Assembly (NCBI GenBank): GCA_000004695.1
Contig: CM000153.2
Coordinates: forward strand, 352,001-416,000
DNA: 64,000 nucleotides
Direction of reading: 5' to 3'
Origin: Dictyostelium discoideum
Lineage: Eukaryota
Part shown: positions 4,370-61,523 of the stretch, piece by piece
Position numbering within the stretch: position 1 is the first letter of the stretch
Layout of the letters: the number at the start of each line of letters is the position of its first letter
Notes under the pieces: generated by a model
Databases searched by the model: none
Told to the model about the DNA's origin: nothing
What the model saw: only the letters and a program-made list of their open reading frames with translations
Position numbers and translations under genes: made by a program

Positions 4370-5076
4370 ATGATTGGGAGAATTAGTTCTAAAACCACTG
4401 CATTATTTATTTGTGATATCCAGACAAGCTTTTTAAAAACTGTTACCCAAATTGAGGAATTAATAATAAATAATAAAAGCCTGGTATTTATTTATGAAAA
4501 AAAAAAAAAAAATAAAAAAAAAATAAAAAAAAAATAAAAAAATTTAAATTTCCATATATTAATAATTTTTTTATTCTTTTTCAAAAGATGGATTCATGTT
4601 TAGAATTTAAAATTCCAATTATAATGACACAGCATGATAAAAATTTATTTGGTGAAATTGTTGAACCATTGAGATATTCTTCTTCTTCTTCTTCTTCATT
4701 ATCAAATGTTATGGTATTTGACAAAATAGCATATTCGATGTATACTAAGGAATTGGCTCAATATGTGAAAGAAAATTTACCAAATTTAAAATCAGTTATA
4801 TTAACAGGTTTAGAATCACATGTTTGTGTACTTCAAACAGCATTGGATTTATTAGAAAACGGATACGAAGTTCATGTTATAGATGATGCAACAACATCGG
4901 TACAACCGAAAGAATATAAATCTTCACTTAAACGTATGAAACAATCTGGTGTTTTTTTAACTTCAACTGAAACTGTAATTTATCAAATTCTTCAAAGTGA
5001 TAATCATCCAAAATTTAAAAAAATCGATGAATTAATTGTTAAAAGATTATTTCAAATAAATAATATAAATAAATAA
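4370..5076 (+). CDS. Isochorismatase-family protein (ISOC1/ISOC2-like hydrolase). Exons are 4370..4483 and 4588..5076.
   Basis: Exon 1 MIGRISSKTTALFICDIQTSF plus exon 2 ...LESHVCVLQTALDLLENGYEVHVIDDATTSVQPKEYKSSLKRMKQSGVFLTSTETVIYQIL matches the conserved core of animal ISOC proteins. The intron has donor CTG|GTATTT and acceptor CAAAAG|ATG. Confidence 0.8.
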
Positions 5077-5147
5077 TAATAAACTTTTAAAAATAAAAAT
5101 ATCCAAAGATAATTATTTCATTTTTTTATTTTTTTTATTTTAACACT

Positions 5148-5356
5148 TTGCAGTGCGAAAATATTTATTTGGAATTTTCTTTGCTTTTTAAAAAAACCAC
5201 ATTTTTTCAATTTCTTATGAGAAATTTTTTTTTTTTTTTTTTTATAAAAAAAAAAAAAATAAAGAGTAAAGAGAAACAAGGATTATTAGATACTATAAAT
5301 GAATTAAAAACAGAGATAATACAATTAAAATCAAAAATTTCAATTCTAGAATGTAC

Positions 5357-5449
<93 letters not shown>

Positions 5450-5573
5450 TAATAATAATGATAATAGTAATAAAGATGTTGATACTGAGAAAGATATAGA
5501 TACAAAAATGGAGGAATTAAAGAATAAATATATAAAGATATTAAAAAAATTGCAAAATCGAAATATGGTATAA
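5148..5573 (+). CDS. Hypothetical small coiled-coil protein with a poly-N tract. The true start is uncertain.
   Basis: Open frame with the heptad-like stretch LLDTINELKTEIIQLKSKISILE. The 5' end lies in low-complexity sequence. Confidence 0.2.
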
Positions 5574-6762
5574 AAGCAACACCAAAATAGTCAATTTTAT
5601 TAGAAAGTATTATTATTAATAATAATTATTTTGGAAAGTTTATAAAAATAAATATTTAAATAGACAAATTTTTAATCATGTATATACAGGTGAACATACA
5701 TTAAAGTATGATGAAATTTTCAATTTTAATTATTTAGTTGAACAAGGTGAAATTGGATTAATTAAAGATAAAGTAAATAGAAATCAATATTTAACAAATT
5801 TCAATAAACAATCTTTTTCAAAAACTTTATTCAAAAATTAAAGAATTTTATTCAAATTTTTTTAAATTTTATCCAAAGATTTCATTAAAAGGAATTAAAT
5901 CCCTCATCAGTCATTCACAACTTTCACTGGATTTTACCCACGTTAATGGAATTATTATATGGAAAGGATTATTTAATTATTTATTTCATTTCAAAATATT
6001 AAACATTTAATTTTGCAAATAATGTTTTACAATTTTAAAAGGTGGTTTCAAAATATCAATATCAATTATAGATTGGTTATGTAAATACTTTAAAAATTCA
6101 AATATCAACTGATATTACAACTCAACTTTTAAATAATAATAATTATTATGAAAAATGTAATAAAGATACTCAAATTGAATAAGATGTTATCAGATGGTAG
6201 AGAGAATATTATTATTACAAAAATAATTTGTCTCACATGATGATAAATCTGTAAAAGTTTTATTAAATTTACTACATTGTACTCAATGTTTAATTGATCC
6301 CGATTTCTCATTATTAGTAAATCCAAATTTTGATTCAAGTTGTAAAGATGATGATGATTCTCGTAAATGGGTAATTCCCGTTGCTGTCGTTGTTTCAGTT
6401 ATTGGTGTTGCAATTCTTGTAATTGTTTGTTTTATAATTTATAAAAGAAGTATCTTAATAAAAGTACAAGTACATAAACTTAAAAATTAAAAAATTGAAA
6501 ATTAAAAAAAAAAAAAAAATTTGTGTATGTGTGTAGTGTTGGAAATTATTTTTTAATATGAAAAATCAGTGTGTGAGATAATTTGAGATTTGCACTAAAT
6601 GATTATTTTTTTTATTTTTTTATTTTTATTTTTTTTTATTTTTTTGTTTTCATATTTTCATTTTTTTTTTTATTTTTTATTTTTTATTTTTTAAAAATAT
6701 CAAATTGTCGTTGTGTTTATTATACATATATATATATATAAACATTTAAACCAAAAATTACA

Positions 6763-7273: not shown

Positions 7274-8656
7274 TTATTTATTTAAATATTTTTTAATTAA
7301 TTGATCAGCTAAAACTAAATCAATTTTTTCAATATTATAATCATCATTACCTTTAACTAATTCATTTAAGATTTGTTGATTTGCTAAACCAATTTTTTGA
7401 GCATAAGCGTATGGTTGAGTTGAGAAAGAAATTAATTCATAACGACTAATATAACGTGAAGGGAATTTAACTTCTAATAAATGTTCAACCTTTTTCTTGA
7501 AAAGGAATAAAGCATCACCAACATGATCACGCATTTCAAAAAAGTTTTCAACTGCCATTTCAGCAATAGCATCAGAATTTGCTTTTCTATTCTCTTGATA
7601 TTTTTTATAAATATTATTGAAATGATCATTATCAAATGGTTTATCAGTGGAGGATGGGTAGAGTGATTTATCCTCAAAACAATTAAATAATTCTAAAACA
7701 TCTTCAAATGCTGCATTCATACCTTGACCATAGAATGGAACGATAGCATGTGCAGCATCACCAACTAATACTACTTTACCTTGATAATGGTATGGTTCAG
7801 TTTTAACGGTGACTAATGATGAGGTTGGATTCTCAAAATAGTCATCCAAAAGATCTGGCATTAATTTATAGGCATCAGGGAAATAATCTTTAAAGAATTG
7901 GTCAACCTTTTCTCTTGTGTCTAGGGATGAGAAACTTAATGGACCGTCGAATGGGAAGAAAAGGGTGCATGTGAAACTTCCATCGATATTTGGCAAAGCG
8001 ATCATCATGAATGAACCACGTGGCCAAATGTGAAGTGAGTTTTTGTCGATTTGAAATGTTTGATTTGGGCCGCTTGGTATGCAAAGTTCCTTATAACCAT
8101 GCTTTAAATAAGATTGGGAGTAGTCTTGTCTGTCCAATTTCACCATAGATCCTCTGACGGCAGAGAAGGCACCATCGCAACCGATGATTGTGGATGCTTC
8201 GATTGTTTGATTGGAATCTTGAGTTTGAATTGTACATTGCTTCAAATCAATAGATTTACAAGCATCAGAGAATATGAATTTAACATTTTCCAATTTCTCT
8301 GTATGTTCACGTAATCTATCATTTAATAATTGACGTGATACACTATATAAATGTTTATTTGAATCTGAACTGTATGCTTGAAATGTTTGAACACTATCTA
8401 ATGAATGAATCATTCTACCTTTCATTGGTATTGCAATCTTTAATATATCATCAACATATCCTGTCTTTGTCAATGTTTTTACACCACGATCTGATAATGC
8501 TAAATTAATTGATCTTGCTCTAATATTTTCACTTTGTTTTGGTCTTTTTTCTATAACTTGAATTGGAAATCCTTTTTGTCCTAATAATAATGCTAATGCA
8601 CTACCTGCTAATCCACCACCAACAATTGTAATTGGTTTATTTAAAAGAATATCCAT
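7274..8656 (-). CDS. kmo: Kynurenine 3-monooxygenase (FAD-dependent)
   Basis: N-terminal GGGLAGS FAD-binding motif, the stretch ARSINLALSDRG, an internal DG motif and a GDAAH signature. Single 460-aa exon colinear with KMO proteins. Confidence 0.9.
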   Translation of the reverse strand: MDILLNKPITIVGGGLAGSALALLLGQKGFPIQVIEKRPKQSENIRARSINLALSDRGVKTLTKTGYVDDILKIAIPMKGRMIHSLDSVQTFQAYSSDSNKHLYSVSRQLLNDRLREHTEKLENVKFIFSDACKSIDLKQCTIQTQDSNQTIEASTIIGCDGAFSAVRGSMVKLDRQDYSQSYLKHGYKELCIPSGPNQTFQIDKNSLHIWPRGSFMMIALPNIDGSFTCTLFFPFDGPLSFSSLDTREKVDQFFKDYFPDAYKLMPDLLDDYFENPTSSLVTVKTEPYHYQGKVVLVGDAAHAIVPFYGQGMNAAFEDVLELFNCFEDKSLYPSSTDKPFDNDHFNNIYKKYQENRKANSDAIAEMAVENFFEMRDHVGDALFLFKKKVEHLLEVKFPSRYISRYELISFSTQPYAYAQKIGLANQQILNELVKGNDDYNIEKIDLVLADQLIKKYLNK

Positions 8657-9298: not shown

Positions 9299-10348
9299 AT
9301 GGGTAAAAAAAGTAAAGAGTTAAGGAATATGATTGATAGTAATATGGGATTAGGACAAAGTGAAATTAAGAAAATTTCAAAAGAGTTACAAGAAACTGCA
9401 GAACCATTGGGATATTTTGGAGATTTGATAGAGAAATTAAAAGAATTAAAAGAGTTACAAACAATGTTGGTTGAAGAAACTGATGAGGATGGTAAACAAA
9501 TGATAAAATCTGATATAAATAAATTGAAGCAAGAAGAGATTGAACCATTGGAGAAACAATTACTATTTAGTTTATTACCAGGTAGCAAAGATGATGCAGG
9601 TGATGCAATATTGGAGATTAGGGCAGGCACGGGCGGCAGTGAGGCTCAGTTGTTTACACAGGACGTGTATGAGATGTATCGTAGTTATTGCCTGCAAAAA
9701 GGGTGGACTTTCGAGCCATTGGAGTTGTCAGTCACCGAGGTGGGCGGCTATCGTGACGTGACCGTGTCGGTGTCGGGCAAAGGCGTGTTTGGGTTCTTAA
9801 AGTACGAATCGGGCGTCCACCGTGTCCAGCGTGTGCCATTGACCGAGACCCAGGGTCGTATCCATACGAGTACCATCACAGTGGCTATATTGCCTGAGCC
9901 TAAGGATGTGGATATTCAAATCCACGATAGAGATTTGAAAGTCGATATCTACCGTTCGTCAGGTAATGGTGGCCAATCTGTAAATACCACTGATTCCGCC
10001 GTGAGAATCACTCATTTGCCAACGGGTATAACTGTGGCAATGCAAGATGAACGTTCTCAACATCAGAATCGTTCAAAAGCAATGAAAATCTTAAAAGCTC
10101 GTATCTATGAAAGAGAACGTATACGTTTACAAAATGAACGTGTATCTGAAAGAAATGCTCAAATTGGTTCAGCTTTACGTTCTGAACGTATTCGTACTTA
10201 TAATTATCCTCAAGATCGTATCACTGATCATCGTGTTTCAATAAATGGAAATTTAAATAGTTGTATGAATTCTGATGGTTTGGATTCTTTTATTGATGAA
10301 ATTTTAGTTGAATTCCATACCAAAGAATTGGAAGAATTATTAAGTTAA
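9299..10348 (+). CDS. Class-I peptide chain release factor (RF1 type, probably mitochondrial)
   Basis: GGQ motif in [24 protein letters not shown] and RF-1 domain conservation throughout. A possible presequence exon (MFRSLNKLL...) lies upstream at about 8952..9141, but the splice phase is unresolved. Confidence 0.88.
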
Positions 10349-15580: not shown

Positions 15581-16210
15581 ATAATTCTATATTAAAAATA
15601 AAATTTCAAGTAAATTATATTTTTTTCTTTAAAATAATCTTAAATTCCTACTTTCTTTGTATCAAAATTAAATTTTTTTTTTTTTTTTTTTTTAAGGTTA
15701 TTTTAAATTTAAATTCCTACTTCTTTGAAAGTAATATTAATTTTTAAATTGAAATTAAAACACTTTGGTAAAACTAATTATAAAATGAACAATTATATTT
15801 ATATATCATTTTTAAATATTTAATTTTTATAGGAATTAATTTGTTCAACAAACATTAATTTTTGTATTGTGGAATAATTTAAATAATTTGGGTGTAAAAA
15901 TGATTGTTATTTTTTTACACACAATAAAATTGGTACTATCATTATATTATGATTGTTATTTTTCCGTTGGGAATTCCTCATCGATCTGATTTAATCATAA
16001 ATTAGATAATCCAAATTAATAAAAACAAAAATAAAAACAAATAAAAAAAATAAATTTAAAAATTAATTCAATTAAAAAATGATTTTCAATACTTAAACTT
16101 AAATTTTATTTTTTATTTTTTTATTTATTTTTTATTTAATTTACAAATTTATAATAACTTTTCCAAATAAATCATTTTTTTCAATAAATTTATAAGCATC
16201 AATAATTGAA

Positions 16211-17137
16211 TCAAAACCTTTGATAACGTTTACCAATTAATAATTTAAATTTATTTTGTTCTAAATTTTTAGTAATAAAATCAACAGCTTCTTTCAATTG
16301 GATTGGATCAGTTGAATAATTAAAAACTAAATAAGCTTCCATTTTAATATTTCTATAAAACAATTGACGAGTTGGGAAAGGAGTATCACCACCAGTAACA
16401 CCATAGATAATGACACGTGCATTTTGAGCACAAACATTTATGATATTTGTAATGAATGGTCCACCAATGGGATCATAAACAATATCCACTCCTTTACCAT
16501 TTGTAATTTCTAAAATCTAATTTTCAAAATCCTTTGAATCTGATGTATTTACGAAATAATCAGCACCAAAATCTAAAAGTTGTTGCTTTTTTGAATTACT
16601 ACGACTTGTTGCAATAACTATTCCACCCAATATCTTTGCAATTTGAATGGCACCTAAACCAGTGCTACCAGTGGCTGCAGTGATTAAAATGAATTGACCT
16701 TCTTTAATTGATTTTAGTGGGTAGTAAGCTGTTAAATATGAAAACCAAATTGATGCAGCTTGTTCATGTGTTACGTTGGATGGATTCTTTACTATTGAAC
16801 CCTCTGGTTGAATACAATATTCTGAATTTGTATTATACTTATCCTGGGTTGTATTTTGTAAAACTGATACTGAATCACCAATTTTAAAATTTTTAACATC
16901 TTTACCAATTCCATCAATCACACCTGACGATTCGTATCCTAATGATGTTGGAAATTTAACATCAATACCTTGAATGTATCCACTATAATATATAGTTTCA
17001 ACTCTACCAATACCAATTGAAACATTTTTAATTCTAACTTCATTATCTTTTGGTTCTACTTTCTCTTTAATATCTTTAATATATAAATTATTAACTGATC
17101 CAAATTTATCAAATAGTAATGTTTTATTTGTTTCCAT
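16211..17137 (-). CDS. Zinc-type alcohol dehydrogenase / quinone oxidoreductase-like protein (MDR superfamily), interrupted by an in-frame TAG at 16517-16519.
   Basis: An N-terminal GroES-like part is followed by the cofactor-binding stretch LITAATGSTGLGAIQIAKILGG, then ...DYFVNTSDSKDFEN*ILEITNGKGVDIVYDPIGGPF... with both halves in the same frame. The stretch around the stop is too short (36 nt) to be an intron. Confidence 0.6.
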
Positions 17138-17157
17138 TTTATTTTTATTATTTATTA

Positions 17158-17312
<155 letters not shown>

Positions 17313-18290
17313 TTATTTGTTTTGATATGATATTATTATTATAAAAAAAAAAAATTATTAAAAAAGGTTTTATTTTAGAACCAATTCACATTTTTGTCAT
17401 TAAAAAAAAAATTTTCAAAAAAAAAAAAATATTAATTAAAAAAAAAGATATCAAGAATATCGGGTGTGGAATAAAGAATTATTTTTTTTTTTTCGAATTT
17501 ATTTATTTTATTTTTTTTATTTTATTTTTTTTTTTTTTATTTTTTTATTTTTTATTTTTTTTTTTTTTATTTTTTTTTTTTATTTTTTTTTTTTTTTTTA
17601 ACACAAATCAGATCAGTGGTTTAGTTTGGAAAATGATCATTTAAGAGCTATAGGACTTAATAAACAGTAATTTATAATCATACTTGATATTCTCATGGTC
17701 ATAATGCTGGTTACACCCCTTACATCAAGAAAACTGAAAAAGAATTATCAACTATTCAAGGTTTTACAATTTCAAGAAATCTCGGCTGATTAGTATTTTA
17801 ATTTATTCACACCTCAACATCAACAACATATTGAACTCACCAAAAACAATTTACATACACACAACCAACAACACCTACTGCACCTTCACTATGAATTAAT
17901 CGACATCAACAACAACACCAACAGTAACAACTACAACACAGCAACGGATTGTTTCACTCCACAAAATTAAAGATAGCTTATGGATTAAATATAAATTCAA
18001 ACTTCAGATGATTTAACACCAATTGGAAAGAATAGTAATGTTAGTAGCAGTAGTATTAATAGTTGTTGTACAAATAGTATTAGTAGTAGTAGTACAAACA
18101 TTAGTTCAATATCAAGTTCAAATTCATTAATAATTATAATATTAATAAAAGAAATAGGTCATCAGTAAATGTTTCAAATAACGAAATTAAGATACAATAA
18201 TAATAAAATAAATTAAAATATAAATATAAATAAAAATTAGAATTTATTAATGTAAAGTTATTTATTTATTTATGGTTTTTTTTTTTTGTT

Positions 18291-20918
18291 TTAAATATTT
18301 GAAATGAATAATGAAATTATTATAATGATTAAAATTGATAATAATAGATTTTGAAAGATATTTCTAGCATCAGAGTATTGATGAACATCATCAGATTGAG
18401 TTAAATATTTGAATACTTTTGATATACCACTTTTACCATTGGTTGAAACATTGATAAATATCATTTCACCATTTTTAATATTATTAAATGTATAATTAGT
18501 TGCTTGAATAAAACATGTTATCATTGTATCATTAATATACTTTGCTTCATTACAATTTAAACTACTATTACCACTACCATTACCATTACCAATTATTGTA
18601 ACTTTATCAATTGGATAATAGAAATCATTTCCAATAATTGTTAAAATACCTCCTTGTTTTAAATTAATTATACTAGTTTGATTAATTGATGGTGATTTAT
18701 ATATAAAACTAAATGTTGATACTATATTATTATCATTATTAAATAATAATTTACAAGTTTTACCATTTGGACCATTTAATTTAATGTAGCATTCTAATGA
18801 TGTACTGCTATTATTTAATTTACATTCTTTTTCTATAATTTGTTCACCATTACATTCAATTGTAAAATTTGTATTATTATTTAAATATTTACCAATAATA
18901 ATGATATTACCACCATTTGTATCAAACAAGTTAGGAATCGATACATTTTTAAAAATTGGAAATGTATTAATATTTACTTTATTTGATAATAAACCACATA
19001 CATTTAAATACAATTCACCAAGAATATTATACTCATCATTCATTTGAAATGATATTGATTCATAAATACTATTATTAATTTCTTTACTAAGGGCTATTGA
19101 TTGACCTGAAATAAAAATACTTGTTTCATTATATTTATTTACAAAACCTTTACCAATACAAGTAACAATTTCATTTGAATTTAAATTACATTTATTAATC
19201 AATGGTGATTCATATGAAAATGATGATTGATATATTTGATTACCAATTTCAATTTCATAATTTATAATACCACAATTATTTTCAATTAAAAATGAACATG
19301 ATACAACACTTTCATTTACATTGGTTGAAATTGATTTACTTGTTTGATTTGATTTTTCATTAATTATTTTAATTGTTGGTATTAAATTAATATTACTTGA
19401 ATTTACATAAAATAATGTAAAATTAATTAATTTATTACTAACCAATGGAATTTCATTTATTCTTGCATACATTTCTACATCTACATTGATTCCATTTGAT
19501 TTGATTGAATTTGATTCAATTGAAATGTTGAAATTATAAATTTGATTTTGTATTTTTAATATTAAATCTGTTTCATCATTATTAATTGATTTTATTTGGC
19601 CAAAAACTTGTTTATCATTGATATGAATTTGAGTTGAATTAATATTACCAAAACAACCACCAATTATATGAATTTCATCATTAACTTGAGAGAATGTTGT
19701 AATATACGGAGTATCATAAATTAATAATAATGTATTTGTATTTACGACATCATTAATCGATACAGCAATTGGTGATGAATTATTAAATGTTGAATTTGAT
19801 AATGGTTGTAAATTACATTTAATTTCATTTGAAGATGACGAAACAATTGAACAAATAGAATCACCAACTGTTACTGATATATTATTATTATTTGATGATG
19901 ATGGTGATGAAGTTAATCTATTACCATTAATTATTAATAAACCACCTTTTAATTTTGGAATACTATTTACAATTGATGGAATTGGTGGATATGTAATTTG
20001 AAATTGAGATGACCAATAATCACAACAACCGACTTGAACATTAAATTTTGATGAGAATGGATCTGAATAATTAAATTTTAATTTAATAATTTCAAAATCA
20101 ACTGAAATAATATCATTTGGGTCAATAATGTTATTATCAATTTTAACAGAAACAAAAATTGATTGATTATAGAAATTTGTACCAGTTATATCAAGAAATG
20201 ATTGATTAATATCAATTTTTTCAATGTTTGGCTCTTGATATGTAAAATTCAATGTTTCATGATTCTCCCAAATAATTGTTCTGTATCCACAACCTGGATA
20301 GACTTTTAAAATTAAATTTATTCTATCAGGTGTTTTTGATTGAAACACACCAGGAATTAAATATACATAGCCAGAATAAAAAAACTGATCTTTTCTATAG
20401 GAATTTTCAAATTGAACATATATTCTTTCTTTTAACTCTAAATAATAACCGCTTAATGTTGTATTTCCACCTCTTGTTTTTGGTTTAAACTCTGAAATTA
20501 ATAATGGACTTGGGAAATAAAATAAAGGAAGATCATAACCACACATTTTAAAAGTACCATTATTTTCTGTACATGCAGATATTTCCTCTGAATACATTTG
20601 AGCATGATCAGATTCTTTCACTGGTAAAGTACAAGTTCTAATTGTATTATTTAAAACACAATTAAAACTCATATCATAACGACTTTTACCTTTCCATAAA
20701 AATGAAATATTTGTATAATAATTTTCTATTTCACGATATCTAATCACAAGAGAATCATTGTGACTTTCATAACCTAAAAAAATAATTAATAAATTATTAA
20801 TATATTAAAAAAAGGGACAAGAAAAAAAAAAAAACAATTTACCCAAAGGAATTACTTCGTCATAAGAAATGGAAAATGAAAATAAATAAAAAAGTATAAA
20901 AAATAATAATATTTTCAT
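18291..20918 (-). CDS. Signal-peptide type-I membrane glycoprotein with about 5 IPT/TIG-like repeats and a C-terminal TM; Tgr (tiger)-like family candidate. Exons are 20843..20918 and 18291..20773.
   Basis: Exon 1 MKILLFFILFYLFSFSISYDEVIPL (signal peptide) has donor G|GTAAAT, and the acceptor TTTTTTAG|GT joins in phase to ...GYESHNDSLVIRYREIE. The repeated motif P.I.S..P..GG..I.I.G..L/F is typical of IPT/TIG domains. There are many NxS/T sites and a terminal hydrophobic helix LLLSILIIIIISLFISNI. Confidence 0.55.
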
Positions 20919-34093: not shown

Positions 34094-37000
34094 TTACTCT
34101 TTAGAAAATAAATTATTTGATTGAGTACATTCCCATTGACCAGAACATTGTGGACAAATATCACCAAGGTTATCAGATTTAACATCATTACATTTTGAGC
34201 ATCTTAAATCTTGTAATTGATAAGATAATGAACGTCTTTGAATGATTTCAACTAATTGACTTTCGATAGTATTTTTAGAATAATGACCTTTACATTGAAT
34301 ACAAGATAATTCTGGAACTCTAATAATATTGTCATCATCACCTTCATTTTCTTCATTATCATCATCACTATCATCACTGTCATTGTTGTTACTCTTTTGT
34401 TGAGAAGATAATCTTGAAGAGATAGAAGTTGTATTTGTATTTCTTAATAAATCAATATCTCTACATGAATGACAAGATGAACAAATTACATCAGGTAAAG
34501 TGAAAGACACGCATGGATCTTTGAATTTAGCTTCATCAGAGAATTCTCTAACTTTCATTGATGTCATTAATTTCATTCTTAAACGTGATACTCTTGATGA
34601 GATTGATTTATCAATTGATAATACATGACAAACGAATTTAATGAATTCTAATGGTGGATTATTTAATTTCAAATAACCACCTGGTAATTGTGGAAATTCT
34701 AATGATGATTGATTAACTTGGAAATGATCCAATAATGTAAAAATACGATTAACATCAATTAATAAATCAAATTTAGATGTAGCTTTCTTTGTTTTTGATG
34801 TAGTTGTAGTTGTTGATGATGATGAAGATGGTGGAATACTAATATCTTCATCCTCTTCTTCATTCCAAGTTGAACTTTTTCTTAAATCTGGTTTAGTTGG
34901 TTCATTAATAGTATCTTTTGTAGTTGTTGTTGTTGCTGCGGTTGAATCATTATTAGAGGAGGAGGAAGTTGTACTAATTTTTTGTTTTAATAAATATCTT
35001 TGTTGTTGTTCTTTTTGAATTCTATTTAATTCATCTCTTTCAGTATGCAATTTATAAATATAATCTGAAATGATAATAATGAAAGAAGTTTGAATTTGTG
35101 GTGGTAAAAATTCTGCAATATTCCAATTGGTTATGATTTTACCATTTTTAATTTTTTTTAATTTTTTATTTTTATTCTGTTGTTGCTCTTCTTCATTTTC
35201 AGATACATCATCATCATCGTCATCATCAGCATTATCTTGTTGTTGTTGTTGTTGTTGTTGATTTTTATTAATTAATGGATTAAAATATAAAATACCAGAA
35301 TAATTTGAATTATTTAACCATAATAAATTATGATAATAATTTGTTTGTTTAAAATTAATCCAACTAAATAATTCTTTCTTTTTAATTACAGCCAAGATAT
35401 AGTTACAATAAGAACGAGCATCTTCAATTGAATCCTTTTGAGAACAAATGATAATCTTATTGAAATTTGCATAAACTATTTTACTACCCAATTTTTTAAA
35501 TTCGAAAATCAATTGAATGAAAACTTTTTTCATTAATTGATGTAAAGTACGATAAAGGATAGGATCATAAAGTTTTGAATTGGTCGAGCTAATCCAACGA
35601 TAGAAATGTAATAAAAGATAATTTGAATAACGTGAACTAATTTCATTTCTTTTACTATTACTACCTGATACTAAATCCAATTTCCATTTTGATACTAAAT
35701 TTCTAAGAATATTAAATTCTTTTTCACAACCACTAATTTGATGATTAATTGCTGATCTAAATTTATTTGTAATTGATAATTTATCAAATGATGATGTTGT
35801 ATCATTTGTAGTATTTTGATTTGCACCATTTTTGGTATTGGAATTATTTGAAGTATTTTTAATATCATCAAACATTGCAACATTTGATTCATCACCTAAT
35901 TCATTACCTAAAATACCTTCAATTTCAGCCAAATGAATTGATTCCAAGATTGTATTTGTTGCTAAATTTTCAATATCCAATTCGAAACAAACTTGATTAT
36001 AACAATCTGAATTATTAATTTCAACATTATTTAATTCTTCATAGAATTTTGCATCATCTTCTTCTGAACCACCTAAATCTGGGAAGTTTGAATCAGACAT
36101 CCAAAGGAGATGTTTTTGTTCAACCAAAGAACGAGCATAGAGAATATCACACATGAATGATGCATTATCAGTTGGAATATTACCAATGGGTATATTTGCA
36201 TAACGTGACATATTTGCATAGTAAACCCAAAGTTTTGGTGCATCCATTAAACGTAATGGTAAGGGTTTCAATGAATGAACATCCCAATTGAATGGTGAAT
36301 ACATTGAATCGTTGTCATGGTAAGGTACTGGTACACGTGGGAATTCTCTAAGTATTGGAATTTGTTCCAATATTCCAATTGCATTTGGAACTTGTAGTAG
36401 AATGATAGTTGGTAAACCTTTACGTTGATATTCCATAATTAATGAACCAATTTCTTTTTTTGCCAAAGACATACTTGATTTTTGGTCCATTGTAAAGGTG
36501 ATTTCTGGTAGTTTCTCCTTTATGGAATTCAATACTCTTGCATCGATTTTGTTGGCGGCCATATAAGGATTTGAGAAAATAACTGAACATTGTTGAGTAT
36601 TCATATTGAAAAGAACGAAATAACCGTCTTTTCCATCACGACTATTATGATACAAAAAGAGTTGATTAAAGTTATGTTCTGCAAGATAATGAAATTGTTT
36701 ATCAGGTTTTGAAGCGATATCCTCCAAAGAGAATCTTGTGTTACTATTGACTATTTTAGTAAAGAATGGTGATACTCTTGACAAAGTAGCTACACAACCA
36801 CATTGAATAATGGCTTTAATATCCAATGGTACCTTTGTTTCATAGACACCCTCAATCATTGGATTGGTGAATAGTGTATTCAATTCCTTTGATTGTTCTA
36901 AAAATTGACTTTCACTCATTGTCACTGAAAAAACATTAAATCTTTGTTTACCTCTTGGTGGTATTACATTTGTATTCTTTTGTGCATCTTCATATGGATC

Positions 37001-40000
37001 GGTATCAATTGAATTTAAATAAAACACTCTACCAATGTCAACTTTAATTGGTATCAATTGATCCTCAATCAATGACCACATTTGATAAATACCTGGTTCA
37101 CCGCCATAAATTGGTTCAATCGATATAATATTCCAATATCCTTTTTTAATTATATCTGATTGACTCTTAAAGAATGACGATGATGAACTTTCTCTATTTG
37201 TTAATTTTGAACCAATTCTAAAACTATCACTATCAAATAATGATCCACCTAATCTTTGTCTTCTCTTTTTTAATAAACGTTGAATTTTCCATTTCTTTTT
37301 TGATATTGATAACCAACCTTGGAAATCTTTATCAATAGATGGTGTTTTAGTTTCCATAATTTGTTTTTCTTGTTCATTTGTAAATGTTTCAATTGATGAT
37401 TTTGATTTTTTAATTAAAAGACTTGAAACATCACTTGATGATTGTTTACTTCTTTTAAATTTAGTAACTTTTGGATTAAATGCTGGTAAATCTTTAAATC
37501 TTGATGAAAACATATTTTCAATATCATCAGTTTGTTGTGGTTTCGAATTATCATTATCATTATCGTTATCATTATCATTATCATTATCATTGTCTTGATC
37601 ATTATCTTCAGTTTTTTCAAAAAATGAAGTAATTGAAGTTTGTTGACGACCATCTTCATTTCTTCTAATTTCTTTTAAAATCCAATCTGGATGAATAACA
37701 CGTGGTACTGGATTTGTAACATTTTGAAGTGCAGCAGGAATTGTAATAATTTTTTGAATTACACCAGATAAACGTTGACGATAATAATCCCAATCGATTA
37801 ATTCACGAATATCTAAATCACCACTTGGAGATTTTGTCCATCTTCTAAGATAATGACAACGAGTTTCAAAATCTGCATCAAAAATTGCAACTGGTAAAGC
37901 ACGTTCAGTAATTGGTGAACCGGCTGGTTTATTGGAGATAATGTATTGACATGATAAACCTTTATCCTTGATCATATCGTCACCTAAAAACTCTGCTAAC
38001 TTTTTGGCAGTACTAATAGCTGAACTCTTTTGTGTACCATATTCTTCTAATTTTCTACTCATATTACTACTTTCGGTAATTAGTTCTATTAGATCCTTTT
38101 CTTCATAGTTTTCAGCATGACTATCTAGAATGTCTAACCAACGATTTGCAACGGCACCAACCGACTGATAACAGCCTTCCAAACTATCACCACCTAAAAA
38201 TTCTTTAAACACTTCAGATTGGAAAAGTTTAATCAATTTCAATTCACCACGTCTTTTAATTTCGAAACCTTTTAATTCACAAATACGACCTTCACGATTG
38301 AATACAGCGTAACGTTTCTTTAATTTCACATCTTTCTCTTTACTAGTTGGAATTAACATACAACGATAAGGACCATCACATTCGAATAGAATGGAACATT
38401 CGTCACGAATTGTATAAGTGTTGGTTTCAGCATTGTAATCTTGGTATTGATGATTTGTGAAACTTTTTGCAACTTTTTCATTCAACATTTCGCAAATGTA
38501 AGAAAAAGTAACTTTTTTACCAGTACTGGCTGATTTTAATGTGTAATTCTCTGGGAAATGTGATGGAAGTATACACCAAATACCATCGGTATCAATCTCT
38601 AATGGTCTACCCATTTGCTCTACCACTTCTCTTGCTTCTTTAATGATGTTTGAACCTGTATGTGTTACAATACCTGCCATTTGCATAGAATACCAACGAG
38701 CACCTTTTCTCATTACATAACCATAGAAAGAGTTTAGAATACACTTGTGAGCTAATTGAAGACTTTCATAGAGTACAACCATACCTTGTGCAGCTACCAC
38801 AGCAACACTATTGGTACCACCAGATTCTTGCATTGCTTGATCATACTTTATCTTCCAATCACGATGATGATTCTTGAAAACATAACGACGATCACGGAAT
38901 AGACGTACAGTATCGACGTAGAATGAATTTTCACGCATACAAATAGTGTCGGAACGAATTTCTTGTGTGATTTGATGGGTTTTTCTATAGACTTTTCTAG
39001 AGTACTCTTTTAAACGTTTTCTTAATAATTCATTACGTTTCTCTTCACTTAGTGATAAGAATGATTTTCTTTCATCTCCATCACCAAATTTCTCAGATTC
39101 CAATTGTTGTAGAATTAAACGATACTCTGACTGATTCGATGGTGAATAGTCACCCCTCCATTGCCAGTCGAGAGTACGTTGACATTGAGACTCTGGTTTA
39201 TTGTAGACACAAGTGGCACAAACCTCGTCATTGACCACTGCAGTTGGTTGAAGTTTATTGGTGAGAATAATATTGGGATACATAGCAGACACATCAAGAT
39301 GGTAAATTAATGGATGTGATTGTTGTTTTGGATTCTCTTTTAACAATGTGAATTTCTTTAATACGTCTTCTTTCACTTCTTGATAATTACTAACGGTATC
39401 TAATGGAATGCCGCCCTCCTTCAATGCAAACTTCAAAACTTGATCAATGTTACCCATATGCTTTTCAATTGAAGCAGGGTCTAATGAGAAATTAGTTGGA
39501 ATATCTGATCTGAATACACCAGACTCTAAACACTCTACATGACCACCCACATAAGTCTCGCTCTCTAATAAATGACCCTTATACATACTATTAATATCAT
39601 CCTTATGTTTATTTGGAAATATTACATCAGCTTTAAAAGCTTGAGTCATTAACAAGGCTTCACATAATGTACCTGAACCTTTTCTAAGCACATCGTCTGG
39701 ATTCATTGGAATAATTGTACAAAGTGAGAAAATGAATGGATGAACATAATTCATATAGAGATAATAAGTTGCAACTGCATCGGAAACTGAGTAATTTGCT
39801 AAAGTTTCAGGATCCTCTTGAGCAGATTTTAACATTAACTCTGGATCCAACTCTAATGGATCGTATCTTAACTTTTCTCTTGTGACCGCTTTCAAACCGT
39901 GACTGCCATGTGGAAGATAACTGTCTCTCTTCACCCAGCAAAATGCATCCATATGAGGGTTGATCTTACTTCTATACTCGCCATTATCATTTCTAAATCC

Positions 40001-41596
40001 AATCTGATGAAACATACTCAAACCATGATACTCTGCTCTACTTTCAACAAAAGGCCAATCAAACATATCACCATTGTACGATACGAATATATGGGGTTTC
40101 TCTCTTTTAATTTCACTGAAAAACCTCTCCAATACTGATTTCTCATCGGGTTCATTAAAAACGGTGAATGGGCCATAATATTCAGGCTTTGGAGTATATT
40201 CGAAATCTTTGATATCCTCAGACACGATTTCACGATTTACAATTAAATAACCTTGTTTATCCAACATATAAGAGATCATCATAATTGAATCAATTGAAGA
40301 ATCTGGAAATTTCAAAGGTAGCTTAGTAGTTTCAATATCATATGCCAACACTTTTGGATCAGGTCTATCAACACGAGTCGTTAATTCATTCACTGTTGTC
40401 AATCTACCATTCTTTATAACTGTATACCATAACCCAACACGAATATTTAAATCAATTGCTGCTCTAACATAATATGGTACATCATATTCTCTAATATCTA
40501 ATATATATTCAGTTGCTTGTTTATTTAATTTACTATTATTATTATTATTATCATCTTTATTTAATTCTTTATTAAAATTATTATTATTTTGATTATTATT
40601 ATTATTATAATTTTGATGATTATTATTATTATTATTTCCTTTATTATAATATGAATTTAAAATTTTATTTAATGATTCATCTTCATATGCTTCACTTGTA
40701 TTTGATTTTTGTTTATTTCTTTTAATGATTGGGAATAAATCATTACGAACTGATAAAAGTGTTGAAACGTTATGAAAACGAATTTTTAAATATTTTCTTT
40801 TTAAACCTGATAAATGATTCTCTAAATCTAAATCCTCTTTATCCATAATATCAATACCTGCTATATCTTTTTCATAGGTACTCTTTAAATATGATTCTAC
40901 TTCTGATTGATGACCTTCCTTTACATAAATATAAAAATATGGATTATAAGGTATCCATACTCTAAATGATGTTGCATCATCTTGAATAAAAAATAATTCT
41001 AATGAAGCTTTTTCAATATCAAGTCCATCTTTTGATGATCCCTGGGGAGGGGGTTTATAAATAAAAAATAAAAAATAAAAAATAACAAATAATAAAAAAT
41101 AAAAAAATTTATTATTTTGGGGGTGGTAATAATTTGAAAAAATTATTAATTTGGTAATTTAAAAATAGAAATGAAAAAATAAAAATAAAAATAAATATAA
41201 TTATTAGTATAAAAAAGGAAAATTTATTTATATCATAATTAAAAATAGAAAAAAGTAAATTACTATTATTATAATTTTAAGATTTTATTTAGATAGTAGT
41301 TATAATAATAATAATGTGGTGGTGGTTGTGGTGGGTAGTGTGTTTATGTGTGATTTTTATATAAAAATAAATAATTTATAGCAATTGCTATTTATGAATG
41401 TTTATTTGATATTAATCGTTTATCGTTGTTTTTTTTATTTTTGAAAAAAAAAAAAAAAAAAAAAAAAAAAGGTACTACTTACAGGTTGCATATTTAATAA
41501 CCAACCCTCCTTTTCATAATTTTTGAAACCAACATATTTATCGTTTTCATCTTTTTCATCTTTATTTTTTTTATTTTCATTCCATTTTTGAGACAT
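34094..41596 (-). CDS. DNA polymerase epsilon catalytic subunit A. Exons are 41483..41596 and 34094..41043; the intron is 41044..41482.
   Basis: Exon 1 MSQKWNENKK...EGWLLNMQP has donor |GTAAGT, and the acceptor CCCCAG|GGA leads into GSSKDGLDIEKASLELFFIQDD...EDLDLENHLSGLKRKYL. Exonuclease motifs DIETTKLPLKFPD and YNGDMFDWPFVE are present, along with family-B polymerase motifs (YHLDVSAMYPNII, LDTDGIW) and C-terminal CysX2Cys zinc modules. Confidence 0.95.
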
Positions 41597-52090: not shown

Positions 52091-52467
52091 GGTAGTAGCA
52101 CAATTTAATTATCATTACCAAAATATAATCAAATTCCATTCAGATATTAAATATTCAAATTGAGATTATAATTGATGAAAATGAAATTATCAAAGATTTA
52201 TCATCAATTGTTGTAGGGAAATTTCAAAAAAATTTCACTACATTAACAGTAGTGATTTTTTGCAGTGAAAAACCAAAATGTATATTCAGTGAAAAAATTA
52301 ATAAACAATTACTTGATTGTTTAGATTAACAATTTACTTTCAAATTTGCGCCAAATTTTTTTTTTTTTTTAATTTTTTTTTAATTTTTTTTTTTTAATTT
52401 TTATAAAAAATATAAATATAAAAATGAAATAAAAAATTAAAGAAATATGAAAAAATGAAATAATAAC

Positions 52468-52601
<134 letters not shown>

Positions 52602-52711
52602 TTAATAATAATTAATAATAATTTAAACTGTTTAAAAATAGTTGTTTTTTATTGTTTTGGTTAACAATTTTTATATTTTATTTTTCTTATTATTAAATTT
52701 ATTGTTATATA

Positions 52712-55179: not shown

Positions 55180-56038
55180 ATGGAAGATGAAGAGGATATT
55201 TTTGAAGATGTTGGAATTTTTAATTTTAATTTTCCAAGTATGTTTAAATCTTCTGGAAATGTTAATGATAATGATGGTTTCAGATGTTCGCAAGCAAATT
55301 GTAATAAAGCTTTTAAAAACAAAGGTCAACTATCTTCGCATGTTAGATGGCATAGAAGACTTGATGCACAATTAGAAAGTGAAACCGATAATGGTGAAGA
55401 AGAAGAGTATTCAAATCCAATTAAACCTTCACAAAGAGGAATTCAATTAAGAAATCAAATGATTCGTTATGGCTTAAGTTTATTTAGAGTAGATTCTCAT
55501 GGAAAATACCTTTGTTTCTTTGAAGGTTGTAATCTTCGAATGCTAACAAACTTTTCTAGACATATCCATAAACATGAACAAAGAAATGACAAAATTAAAC
55601 CTGATCTTGTTGATTTAATTCCAAACTCAAATAATATTCCAGAAACCCAAAATATAAGGCCATATTCTTTACCTTCATCACCAACAAATTGTAAAATTTC
55701 ACCAGTTTTTTCAAAAAACATTCAAAATTTAATTATTAATCAAAATAAATATAACAACAATTATAATACCAATAATACCAATAATAACTCTAATAATACA
55801 AATAGTAATACAAATAATTATAACCATAATGAAGAAAATCAAAAAACAATTGATTTTGATTTTAGAAAAAAAAATTTAAAATTTTTTAAAAATAAAATTG
55901 AATATAAAAATAAAAATGTTGTAAATAATAAAATTAATACTAATAATATTATTAATAATAATGATGAAAATAATGAAATTAATGAAATTAATGAAATTAA
56001 AGAAATTAACGAAACTAATGAAATTAGTATTAATAATC

Positions 56039-56106
<68 letters not shown>

Positions 56107-57147
56107 TATAATAGTAATTGGTTGAAAGGTGATCAAAAGTCAGTCTTTGAAAATATAATAAAAGAAACAAAATTAAAATTATTACATAGTGGAAAAGAAG
56201 ATCTCTCTACAAAAAAAAAGGATTTCAACAATGATCCATCGCAAAGATTTATTTTCAAAATTCAAAGAAAATTTGTAAAATATATGGTTTCTAAGTACTT
56301 AGAAAATCATACAATAATTCATAATCCAGAACAACTTAAATTATGTGCGCCACCAATCATTAAAGAATATCTTGAAGAATTAATGTTGGAACAATCTAGT
56401 TTTAAAGAATTTTGTGATTTAATTGCAACAAATATTGGAAATGATAAAATTTTTGATGGAATAATTAAAAACAATAATTTAATGAGCATTAATTTTATAA
56501 ACAACAATAATAATATTAATAAAAAAAGTAAAGATCAAAATATAGAAAATATTAAGGATTTACAATCAATTAGATGCAGCCATCACTCTGATAAATTCAT
56601 TAACTTTATATGCAAAGATTGCAACTATCTACCATGTTGCGAGAGATGTAAAGATATTTTTTATCATAAAAGACACCAAGTTGAAGAATTGGATGAAATC
56701 AATGTTGACAATTTCATAAACAATTTAGATAGAAAACGTTTTAATATTGAAGTAATTAATGAAAACAATTGTCAATCTATAAATAAAAAAATAAATGGAC
56801 TTGGTTTGGGACATTTCAAAGAAACTCTTACAAATTTAATAGATAAAATAAATAAATGTGTATCAAAGACTATTGAACCACAATTTACAGATAGGGAAAT
56901 AAAAAACTTGGAGAAAATCATTACAATTGATGAAAAAAACAATAAATTAAAAGAAATGGGTGAACTTGTTATGCAGAATGGTGATTTAAAAAATCCAAAT
57001 TCTTTAAAAACTGCCGTTCACTATCTTCAAAATTTAGTGGAATTTGAAGAAATTAAAAAAGATTTGGAATTTACTCGTATAAATTTTGAAAAATTATTGG
57101 ATCTACTCAAATTGTTTGAATCAACAATTTCAAACCCCAATTGGTAA
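55180..57147 (+). CDS. C2H2 plus B-box zinc-finger protein (family member 3)
   Basis: FRCSQANCNKAFKNKGQLSSHVRWH and YLCFFEGCNLRMLTNFSRHIHKH are C2H2 fingers. CSHHSDKFINFICKDCNYLPCCERCKDIFYHKRHQVEELDE is a B-box. The C-terminus LKEMGELVMQNGDLKNPNSLKTAVHYLQNLVEF is paralogous to the 46213 gene. (AAT)n encodes poly-N. Confidence 0.7.
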
Positions 57148-57272: not shown

Positions 57273-58244
<972 letters not shown>

Positions 58245-59745: not shown

Positions 59746-61523
59746 ATGAGAATTTTATATTTAGCTTCTCTTTTATTTTTAATTACATTATATCTATCAC
59801 CAACTTTTGGTTGGGGTGGTGGCAGAGGTAATTAATTTTATTTTATTTAAAATTTATTAATATTATTATTAAATAATAAAATTTCTAATAATAAATATTA
59901 TTTACTTTTTTTTTTTTTTTTTCTCTCTCAATATTAGATTGTGAAAGTCATCGTTCAGAATATACATGTAAATCAGATAGAAGTTGTGCATATTTACCAT
60001 TTGTATCATGTTGTGGTAAGAAAGAATTTTTCTGTGTTAATCGTGATCATAGAAATTGTTGTGATGATTTATCATGTGCTAAAAACACGAGAACTGGTGA
60101 AATCTTTGAGATTTGGTCAAGTTGTAAACCACATAGAGATTTTGTACCATATCATTCACCAAATACAACCACATGTGAATCATTAGGTTGTGAAGCAAGA
60201 GGTATGGAATGTGAATGGGTTGAATCATCACCATGTTATGGAACTTCTTGTTGCCCAAGAATTCCAAGATGTGTTGGTCATCATGGTGGCGGTCATAAAT
60301 GTGACAGAATGAGATGTCCAGAAGGATTCTATTGTGAAGAACAAGGTGGTAGTGCATGCTGCGTACCACATCATGACGGTTGTGGTAATATTCAATGTCC
60401 ATGGGGCCACTATTGTGTCAATGAACATGGTAAATGCAGATGTGTACCACACAGACCACCACCACGTCCACCAGTTGACCAATGCCGTAATCAACATTGT
60501 CCACATGGTTATTCATGTCGTGTCATTAAAGGTTGTGCCACTTGTGTCAGAGATGCCCGTCCACCACATAACCTTTGTCGTGGTTTTGGTTGTCCAGAAG
60601 GCTCCCATTGTGAAGTTCTTGAAAAACATCCAGTTTGTGTTAGAAATCATGTTCCACCACACCCACCACCACCACCACAAATTTGCGGTAGTGTAAATTG
60701 TGGTCCAGGTTATATTTGTACAATTATCAATGGTCATCCAACTTGTATTCGTGGTGATGGTTATTTATGTAATCAAACCCGTTGTCCACACGATTATCAA
60801 TGTGAAACCATTAGCACCAATATCGTGAAATGTTCACCAAAGAATGACGAATGTAAATGGCATCGTTGTCCACCAGGTTCCAGCTGCTTCAATAGTAGAA
60901 ACGGTCCACACTGTCTTGCCAATAATGTATTCCCACAACTTTGTAAAGTTACTCAATGTCCAACTGATTTCTCTTGTAAAATGATTAGAGGTAATCCAAC
61001 TTGTATTAAAGCAAGACCACCGGTACCACCACCACATTGCTCAACTTGTGCAGAGCTATCATCAGCATGTAATCACGTTGGAATGATTTGTATTCAAGTA
61101 CCAAGCAATTGTACCAATACTAGATTCCCATGTTGCCCATCTCATCCAATTTGTATTCATCCATCAACTACTGCTGCTTCAACCATTGCAACAACTGCAT
61201 CAACTGTCGCAACTACAACCTCTGCAACTACTGCAGGTACAACAACTGGTGGAACTACAACTGGTGGTTCAACTTCTGATAGTAGTGCTGCTTCCTCAGC
61301 CGATAGTAGCGCTGCCTCCTCATCACCATCAAGCAGTGCTGCTTCAAGTGCCGCTTCAAGTGAACCATCAAGTAGCGCCGCTTCAAGTAGTGCTCCATCC
61401 TCTGCTTCAAGTAGCGCTCCATCCTCTGCCTCAAGTAGTGCTCCATCATCATCAGCTTCAAGTTCAGCTGCATCATCAGCTGCAAGCTCAGAAAGCTCAG
61501 AAAGCTCATCAGCCACTTCATAA
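59746..61523 (+). CDS. Secreted cysteine-rich repeat protein with Pro-rich linkers and a Ser/Ala/Thr-rich C-terminal tail (spore-coat SP96/CotA-like architecture). Exons are 59746..59827 and 59938..61523.
   Basis: Exon 1 MRILYLASLLFLITLYLSPTFGWGGGR is a signal peptide with donor G|GTAATT, and the acceptor TATTAG|AT is in phase. There are about 12 repeats of C.{4-6}CP.G..C....G...C(V/I), PPHPPPPPQ linkers, and a tail of SSAASSAPSSSA repeats (mucin-like, O-glycosylation-type). Confidence 0.7.

Follow-up and report, generated by a model that had tools for sequence, protein, structure and literature searches.

The window, a 64,000-nucleotide stretch of Dictyostelium discoideum DNA, has a GC content of approximately 20% overall (mostly 15–30%) and contains long (TAA)n tracts and Asn-rich ORFs. 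On its minus strand lies the 997-nt remnant of an intronless gene of the MDR (quinone-oxidoreductase-like) type, a length equal to the 996 nt of intact alleles plus one inserted base (Table 1). Immediately upstream of the start codon is a (TAA)n/(ATT)n microsatellite of about 200 nt (17140–17342), and similar tracts are found at about 52400–52625, 55890–56120 and 57570–57775. An Ig/TIG-domain gene of the TgrO1 type occupies 18291–20771 on the minus strand (818-aa ORF; Pfam Ig_TgrO1, 100 bits; TIG, 35 bits). Other neighbours in the window are the DNA polymerase epsilon catalytic subunit (2250-aa ORF, 34094–40846, minus strand), an organellar-type class I peptide chain release factor with PCRF and RF-1 domains, and an FAD-dependent monooxygenase-like ORF; the last two together occupy 9299–10348 (plus) and 7274–8656 (minus). 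These housekeeping neighbours account for the higher GC at 36–40 kb and the lesser rise at 7–10 kb. The highest-GC stretch (0.40 at 60–61 kb) holds a 439-aa ORF (60204–61523, plus strand) that had no Pfam match at E<=1e-5.

Table 1. Parts of the oxidoreductase gene remnant and sites discussed in the text, in window coordinates
Feature	Position	Strand	Basis or remark
Whole remnant of intronless MDR / quinone-oxidoreductase-like gene	16141..17137	-	Pfam, protein identity, DNA alignments
N-terminal ORF, 206 codons + TAG	16517..17137	-	Identical to 206-aa UniParc entry UPI00004E5375
Missense A105S, private to the window	16823..16825	-	Allele comparison
Missense K173I, private to the window	16619..16621	-	Lys in 8/8 dictyostelid orthologs
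36-nt GT...AG stretch (GTAAAT...AATTAG), treated as intron by KAM9943459.1	16517..16552	-	Judged coding
Lesion 1: nonsense TAG at codon 207 (Q207*)	16517..16519	-	Sense codon in other alleles
Codons 208-306 minus last base of 306, original frame open	16222..16516	-	ILEITNGKGVD...LLIGKRYQ
Lesion 2: AAA run with one inserted A, +1 frameshift at codon 306/307	16219..16221	-	Alignment gap
Premature TGA made by the frameshift, ending the second ORF (...GKRYQRF*)	16211..16213	-	Translation
Original C-terminal 25 codons + TAA, now out of frame: GFDSIIDAYKFIEKNDLFGKVIINL*	16141..16218	-	Translation

The N-terminal ORF begins with the ATG at 17137. It includes the GroES-like domain, whereas the Rossmann domain is represented by no more than roughly its first third. 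Reading across the TAG (*) gives ...DYFVNTSDSKDFEN*ILEITNGKGVDIVYDPIGG... or, with more of the N-terminal side, ...GADYFVNTSDSKDFEN*ILEITNGKGVDIVYDPIGG.... The repaired translation matches Pfam ADH_N (PF08240; 37.3 bits against a cut-off of 23.5; residues 31–108), as expected of an MDR protein, and, for the Rossmann fold, ADH_zinc_N (PF00107; 93.4 bits against 31.8; residues 160–289), the domain that the stop at codon 207 cuts. It also matches ADH_zinc_N_2 (51.6 bits). Since the Pfam matches span the stop and the joined sequence aligns end to end with intact orthologs of 331–333 aa (E=2e-194), the continuity across the TAG is not a matter of chance.

A second lesion lies downstream. In the window the sequence at codon 306/307 is TATCAAAGG as opposed to TATCAAGG in all orthologs, and the DNA alignment pairs TATCAAAGGTTTT of the window with TATC-AAGGTTTT of each ortholog; codon 306 has its last base inside the A run. 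The displaced C-terminus is identical to that of the intact alleles. Among 40 distant homologs the segment lost to the frameshift holds near-invariant residues at Ala314 (38/40), Gly325 (39/40) and Lys326 (38/40). The original prediction placed the TAG exactly at 16519..16517, put the ORFs 16517..17137 and 16211..16489 in one frame, read them as a contiguous oxidoreductase and named the MDR/quinone oxidoreductase family, all of which is borne out. Its description of the gene as otherwise intact is not, as the second ORF reaches its TGA only through the 1-bp insertion.

When intact, the gene specifies an MDR protein of 331 aa with two domains, in whose translation the glycine-rich motif AATGSTG can be read directly. 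Both the Cys/His ligands of a catalytic zinc and the Cys cluster of a structural zinc are absent. Because the first 107 residues contain neither Cys nor His, and because GYE stands in place of the GHE of zinc alcohol dehydrogenases, the intact protein is of the zinc-free, quinone-oxidoreductase/zeta-crystallin-like MDR type. The best relatives of solved structure are the quinone oxidoreductases 3qwa, 2j8z and 1qor (E=1e-26 to 1e-29), together with a Thermus "alcohol dehydrogenase" (2eih), and the best NCBIfam models are the PIG3 type and NADPH:quinone reductase. The intact allele P0069 falls under the curated NCBIfam cut-offs for both of these named subfamilies (PIG3 TIGR02824, 134.6 bits against 296.8; PRK10754, 110 bits against 348), so the protein was placed in neither. 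Beyond the group-4 dictyostelids the closest relatives are 36–38% identical. They come from metagenomic contigs that are compact and bacteria-like, in which gene ends overlap and a response regulator lies nearby (e.g. L008, 3308–4300). The protein search returned no other amoebozoan or closer eukaryotic homolog, the best named eukaryote being Basidiobolus at 26–27%. This pattern could mean a horizontal origin or simply limited sensitivity of the search.

To compare alleles, orthologs were collected by protein search and cluster look-up. The closest matches in the protein search were all from Dictyostelium. D. citrinum gave an intact protein of 333 aa (91% identity over 99% of the length) and D. 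discoideum a model of 296 aa; the others were an entry of 206 aa corresponding to the N-terminal ORF and a D. purpureum model that is partial. Through the cluster look-up came further intact proteins, of 331 aa in two assemblies each of D. discoideum and cf. discoideum, and of 333–334 aa in another D. citrinum and in D. dimigraforme. The orthologous alleles compared number eight, from two diverged D. discoideum, two cf. discoideum, two D. citrinum, D. dimigraforme and D. purpureum. DNA of six alleles of the intact set was fetched for alignment, and the D. purpureum DNA was read besides.

Neither Q207* nor the insertion at 306/307 is present in any of the eight alleles. The codon at the TAG position, which the original prediction had singled out for comparison with other isolates, is a sense codon in all of them: CAG (Gln) in the D. 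discoideum alleles L004 and L005, CGG and CAA in cf. discoideum, CAA in D. citrinum and CAA in D. purpureum. The TAG is caused by a single C-to-T transition at 16519 (CAG, Gln207, to TAG). The extra A is confined to the window and to one further assembly, L003 (GCA_054883475.1), which also carries the TAG. At the frameshift site D. purpureum reads TAT AAT GGT with no additional base.

The D. purpureum ortholog (L002, GL871070.1, 4998–6059) is intact and has two exons, 4998–5204 and 5277–6059, separated by a 72-nt intron (5205–5276). This intron is missing from the discoideum, citrinum and dimigraforme alleles and was therefore lost or gained. In the public D. purpureum models the gene is split, with a protein of 202 aa labelled 'partial' and another gene of 66 aa. 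As the partial model ends near the TAG position, a conserved stop or intron in D. purpureum was considered and rejected, since the DNA there is uninterrupted (EFEKQVLEIT) and continues to a normal C-terminus. The partial model is an annotation split.

The TgrO1-like gene adjoins the oxidoreductase in the window and in L001 and L003–L006, so that the broken gene occupies the same position as its intact counterparts. The protein search found only one D. discoideum-type locus per genome, hence the remnant is neither a duplicate nor a retrocopy. In D. citrinum the syntenic TgrO1-like gene has 82.7% DNA identity compared with 88% for the oxidoreductase gene region. The window matches other D. discoideum loci at 93–96% identity at best, within and beside the gene, and at 83–87% deeper in the flank; flank identity overall is 83–93% for L004 and L005 and drops to 75% for cf. 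discoideum L006. Between the window allele and L004/L005 dS is ~0.09, and it is 0.49 to D. citrinum. Mean gene diversity within D. discoideum is given as 0.003 in a preprint (10.1101/2025.10.22.684067). The tropical isolates are known to be diverged, which may explain the gap between 0.09 and 0.003; so may linkage to the polymorphic tgr gene next door.

Over 10.9 kb L003 differs from the window by no substitutions and three indels, all of them in long A or T homopolymers. L003 is therefore an assembly in its own right of what is essentially one genotype with the window, and the three differences show that it was not copied from it. Holland et al. 2025 (PMC12745789) describe de novo Nanopore and Illumina assemblies that include the laboratory strain AX2-214, the tropical, diverged D. 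discoideum CR116C and OT3A, the possible cryptic species M4B and S6B, and D. citrinum and D. dimigraformum. That study is the apparent source of the new assemblies, to judge by which species are named and how the assemblies are mixed. The laboratory lineage derived from NC4 would then be represented by the window (AX4-like) and L003 (AX2-214), while CR116C and OT3A would be the origin of the intact D. discoideum alleles. Both lesion-bearing assemblies are of one genotype. The lesions may also occur in close North American wild isolates or in NC4 itself, so that 'lab-lineage specific' is a lower bound on their distribution.

Selection was examined by the Nei-Gojobori method, with the repaired window sequence compared to intact alleles. 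dN/dS is 0.06–0.19. The two halves, which the original prediction had proposed to compare with orthologs, show no decay yet: the upstream half has dN/dS of 0.10–0.24, and the part beyond the TAG differs from L004/L005 at 7 synonymous sites and at 0 nonsynonymous ones. Relaxed constraint, that is dN/dS approaching 1, was found in neither half. Apart from its lesions the coding sequence has been under strong purifying selection for almost all its history. Because there is no detectable relaxation, and not one nonsynonymous against seven synonymous differences past the TAG, inactivation seems to have been very recent, either after or late on the branch that divides the tropical isolates and the laboratory lineage. 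The window's private changes comprise 6 synonymous, 2 missense (A105S and K173I), 1 nonsense and 1 indel. That 2 of the 10 are disabling fits a second hit added after the first. The unrelaxed dN/dS fits a very young pseudogene and fits equally a gene kept functional by some bypass, and with relaxation missing the claim is limited to 'young'.

A rival reading is splicing, in which a short intron spanning the TAG is removed and the stop never meets the ribosome. The deposited 296-aa model KAM9943459.1 (P0002) adopts it. This model joins ...GADYF to ILEIT..., ends in ...RYQRF and spans 927 nt, that is 296 codons, a stop and 36 nt; because junction, end and span agree, it cuts out exactly the 36-nt stretch and accepts the frameshifted end. 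The stretch has GT...AG borders and a length that is a multiple of three. The original prediction knew of the 36-nt stretch, rightly distrusted it as too short, and wrongly called it the only candidate, as GT...AG pairs of 36, 43, 50 and 57 nt span the stop, of which the 36- and 57-nt pairs keep the frame. The 57-nt alternative (GTGCTG...TTTTAG, from gene position 572) was rejected: its removal would take out the conserved GAD motif, and GTGCTG is a poor donor.

Apart from its borders the 36-nt stretch does not look like an intron. In intact alleles it encodes VNTSDSKDFENQ, a peptide conserved across the eight orthologs, and D. citrinum carries an in-frame 3-nt indel within it. Intact alleles hold the same GT...AG pair, and their models leave it unspliced. 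Its GC content of 25% is similar to that of the gene (27.7%); the flanks (6.5–14.5%) and the real intron of D. purpureum (13.9%) are much lower. GT...AG pairs of 30–60 nt number 81 in the gene by chance. Introns of D. discoideum have a median of 104 nt (PMC4683709) and a mean of 133–146 nt (PMC4683709, PMC3188802); a literature search for a published minimum intron length in Dictyostelium gave mean and median values only. Splicing would also delete part of the Rossmann fold and leave the downstream frameshift unrepaired. A real short intron here, of 36 or 57 nt, is thus very unlikely. Since the 36 nt are conserved coding sequence in every intact allele and exon-like in composition, the 296-aa model is probably an annotation artefact that bridges the stop.

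We also considered a rescue by 'intronization'. The C-to-T change turns ...ATCAG at the would-be acceptor into ...ATTAG, which may resemble AT-rich 3' splice sites more closely. The mutation that created the stop may then also have improved a 3' splice site and converted 36 nt of coding sequence into a newly born intron, in line with the 296-aa model. If true, this would be a dated, lineage-specific intron birth at a size far below the normal Dictyostelium intron length, and we regard it as improbable to much the same degree as a real intron.

Another reading holds that the 206-aa N-terminal fragment is itself functional and retained by selection. The annotation lists the 206-aa ORF as a protein, and dN/dS in the upstream half is low. 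Most of the cofactor-binding domain is missing from the fragment, however, and its low dN/dS goes back to the long intact period. Both private missense changes fall in the upstream half, and none of the orthologs is truncated. A selected role for the fragment is therefore highly doubtful.

Recoding would require the TAG to be read through, possibly together with a +1 frameshift at CAA-AGG-T, to give the full-length enzyme. The low dN/dS downstream of the TAG is in keeping with this, and AGG is a rare codon in this AT-rich genome; rare codons can favour +1 shifts. On the other hand the recency of the lesions explains the low dN/dS, and one mRNA would need two separate rare events, as the ORF downstream of the stop is itself frameshifted. 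Since all orthologs have a sense codon and lack the insertion, nothing here is 'programmed' or conserved as a recoding signal. We know of no readthrough motif in the context TAG-ATT-TTA. A search with ARAGORN, whose scope was the window, detected no tRNA gene of any kind, which rules out a suppressor tRNA encoded within this stretch. The readthrough offered by the original prediction is accordingly implausible, and recoding in general is extremely unlikely.

Just as remote is a sequencing or assembly error, in which the true genome would have a sense codon and no extra A: single-base differences are typical of such errors and the extra A sits in a short homopolymer, but both lesions recur in identical form in an independent assembly, which is set apart from the window by three long homopolymers, its project apparently combined Nanopore and Illumina reads de novo, the 206-aa database entry equals the cut-down ORF, and the A run is just 3 bases long.

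These results make it very probable that the remnant is a very young unitary pseudogene, neither duplicated nor processed; that is, a null allele with two lesions, private to the laboratory-type genotype among the available genomes. A young pseudogene and a strain-specific nonsense allele, which the original prediction listed separately, are the same thing here, and other isolates have CAG within an uninterrupted 331-aa ORF. The C-to-T change of Gln207 would have cut the NAD(P)H-binding Rossmann domain after about one third of its length. The one-base insertion in the short A run would remove the conserved C-terminal 25 residues, and the later of the two lesions, whichever it was, may have accumulated neutrally after the earlier. 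The predicted product in the laboratory genotype is a 206-aa fragment without most of the cofactor-binding fold, and it is presumably inactive. A functional enzyme is probably not made in this genotype, as far as can be judged from sequence.

Two database records, UPI00004E5375 (206 aa) and KAM9943459.1 (296 aa), appear to be artefacts of the broken gene and call for a pseudogene flag. Group-4 dictyostelids conserve this oxidoreductase, for which the standard laboratory genotype seems to be a natural knock-out. What laboratory strains show about redox or xenobiotic metabolism may therefore not be representative of wild D. discoideum. The pseudogene is otherwise an ordinary one that bears on no open question, and its value is mainly in annotation hygiene and strain awareness.

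Three known systems offer a comparison. The first is the quinone oxidoreductase branch, represented by E. coli QOR (1qor), yeast Zta1 (3qwa) and human PIG3/TP53I3 (2j8z). The Dictyostelium gene shares with it the GroES-like ADH_N domain followed by the Rossmann ADH_zinc_N domain, the glycine motif AATGSTG, and the lack of Cys or His at the zinc-ligand positions. It differs in being only ~30–38% identical to any non-dictyostelid relative, in scoring below the curated PIG3 and PRK10754 cut-offs, and in being broken in the window.

The second is the annotation artefact of predicted introns that bridge in-frame stops, in the spirit of Roy and Penny 2007 (PMC1950532). Here too a 3n intron was called within what comparison shows to be coding sequence, and it is invoked only in the stop-bearing Dictyostelium allele. 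The miscalled 3n introns in that paper's example lack in-frame stops, and the cause in the present case is a genuine nonsense mutation as opposed to an assembly error.

The third is that of unitary pseudogenes and segregating loss-of-function alleles, such as the many tgr pseudogenes annotated in AX4, part of which other strains carry in intact form. Literature on this set of genomes describes reference-strain pseudogenes that differ in status between strains (bioRxiv 10.1101/2025.10.22.684067; PMC12745789). Unlike the tgr pseudogenes, the broken gene encodes a housekeeping-type enzyme that lies beside a tgr gene and does not belong to a birth-and-death family. As far as seen it is publicly listed as the 206-aa fragment and the 296-aa micro-intron model, not as a pseudogene. 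In common with unitary pseudogenes, it is a single-copy gene in its ancestral syntenic position, with point lesions in one lineage and intact relatives.
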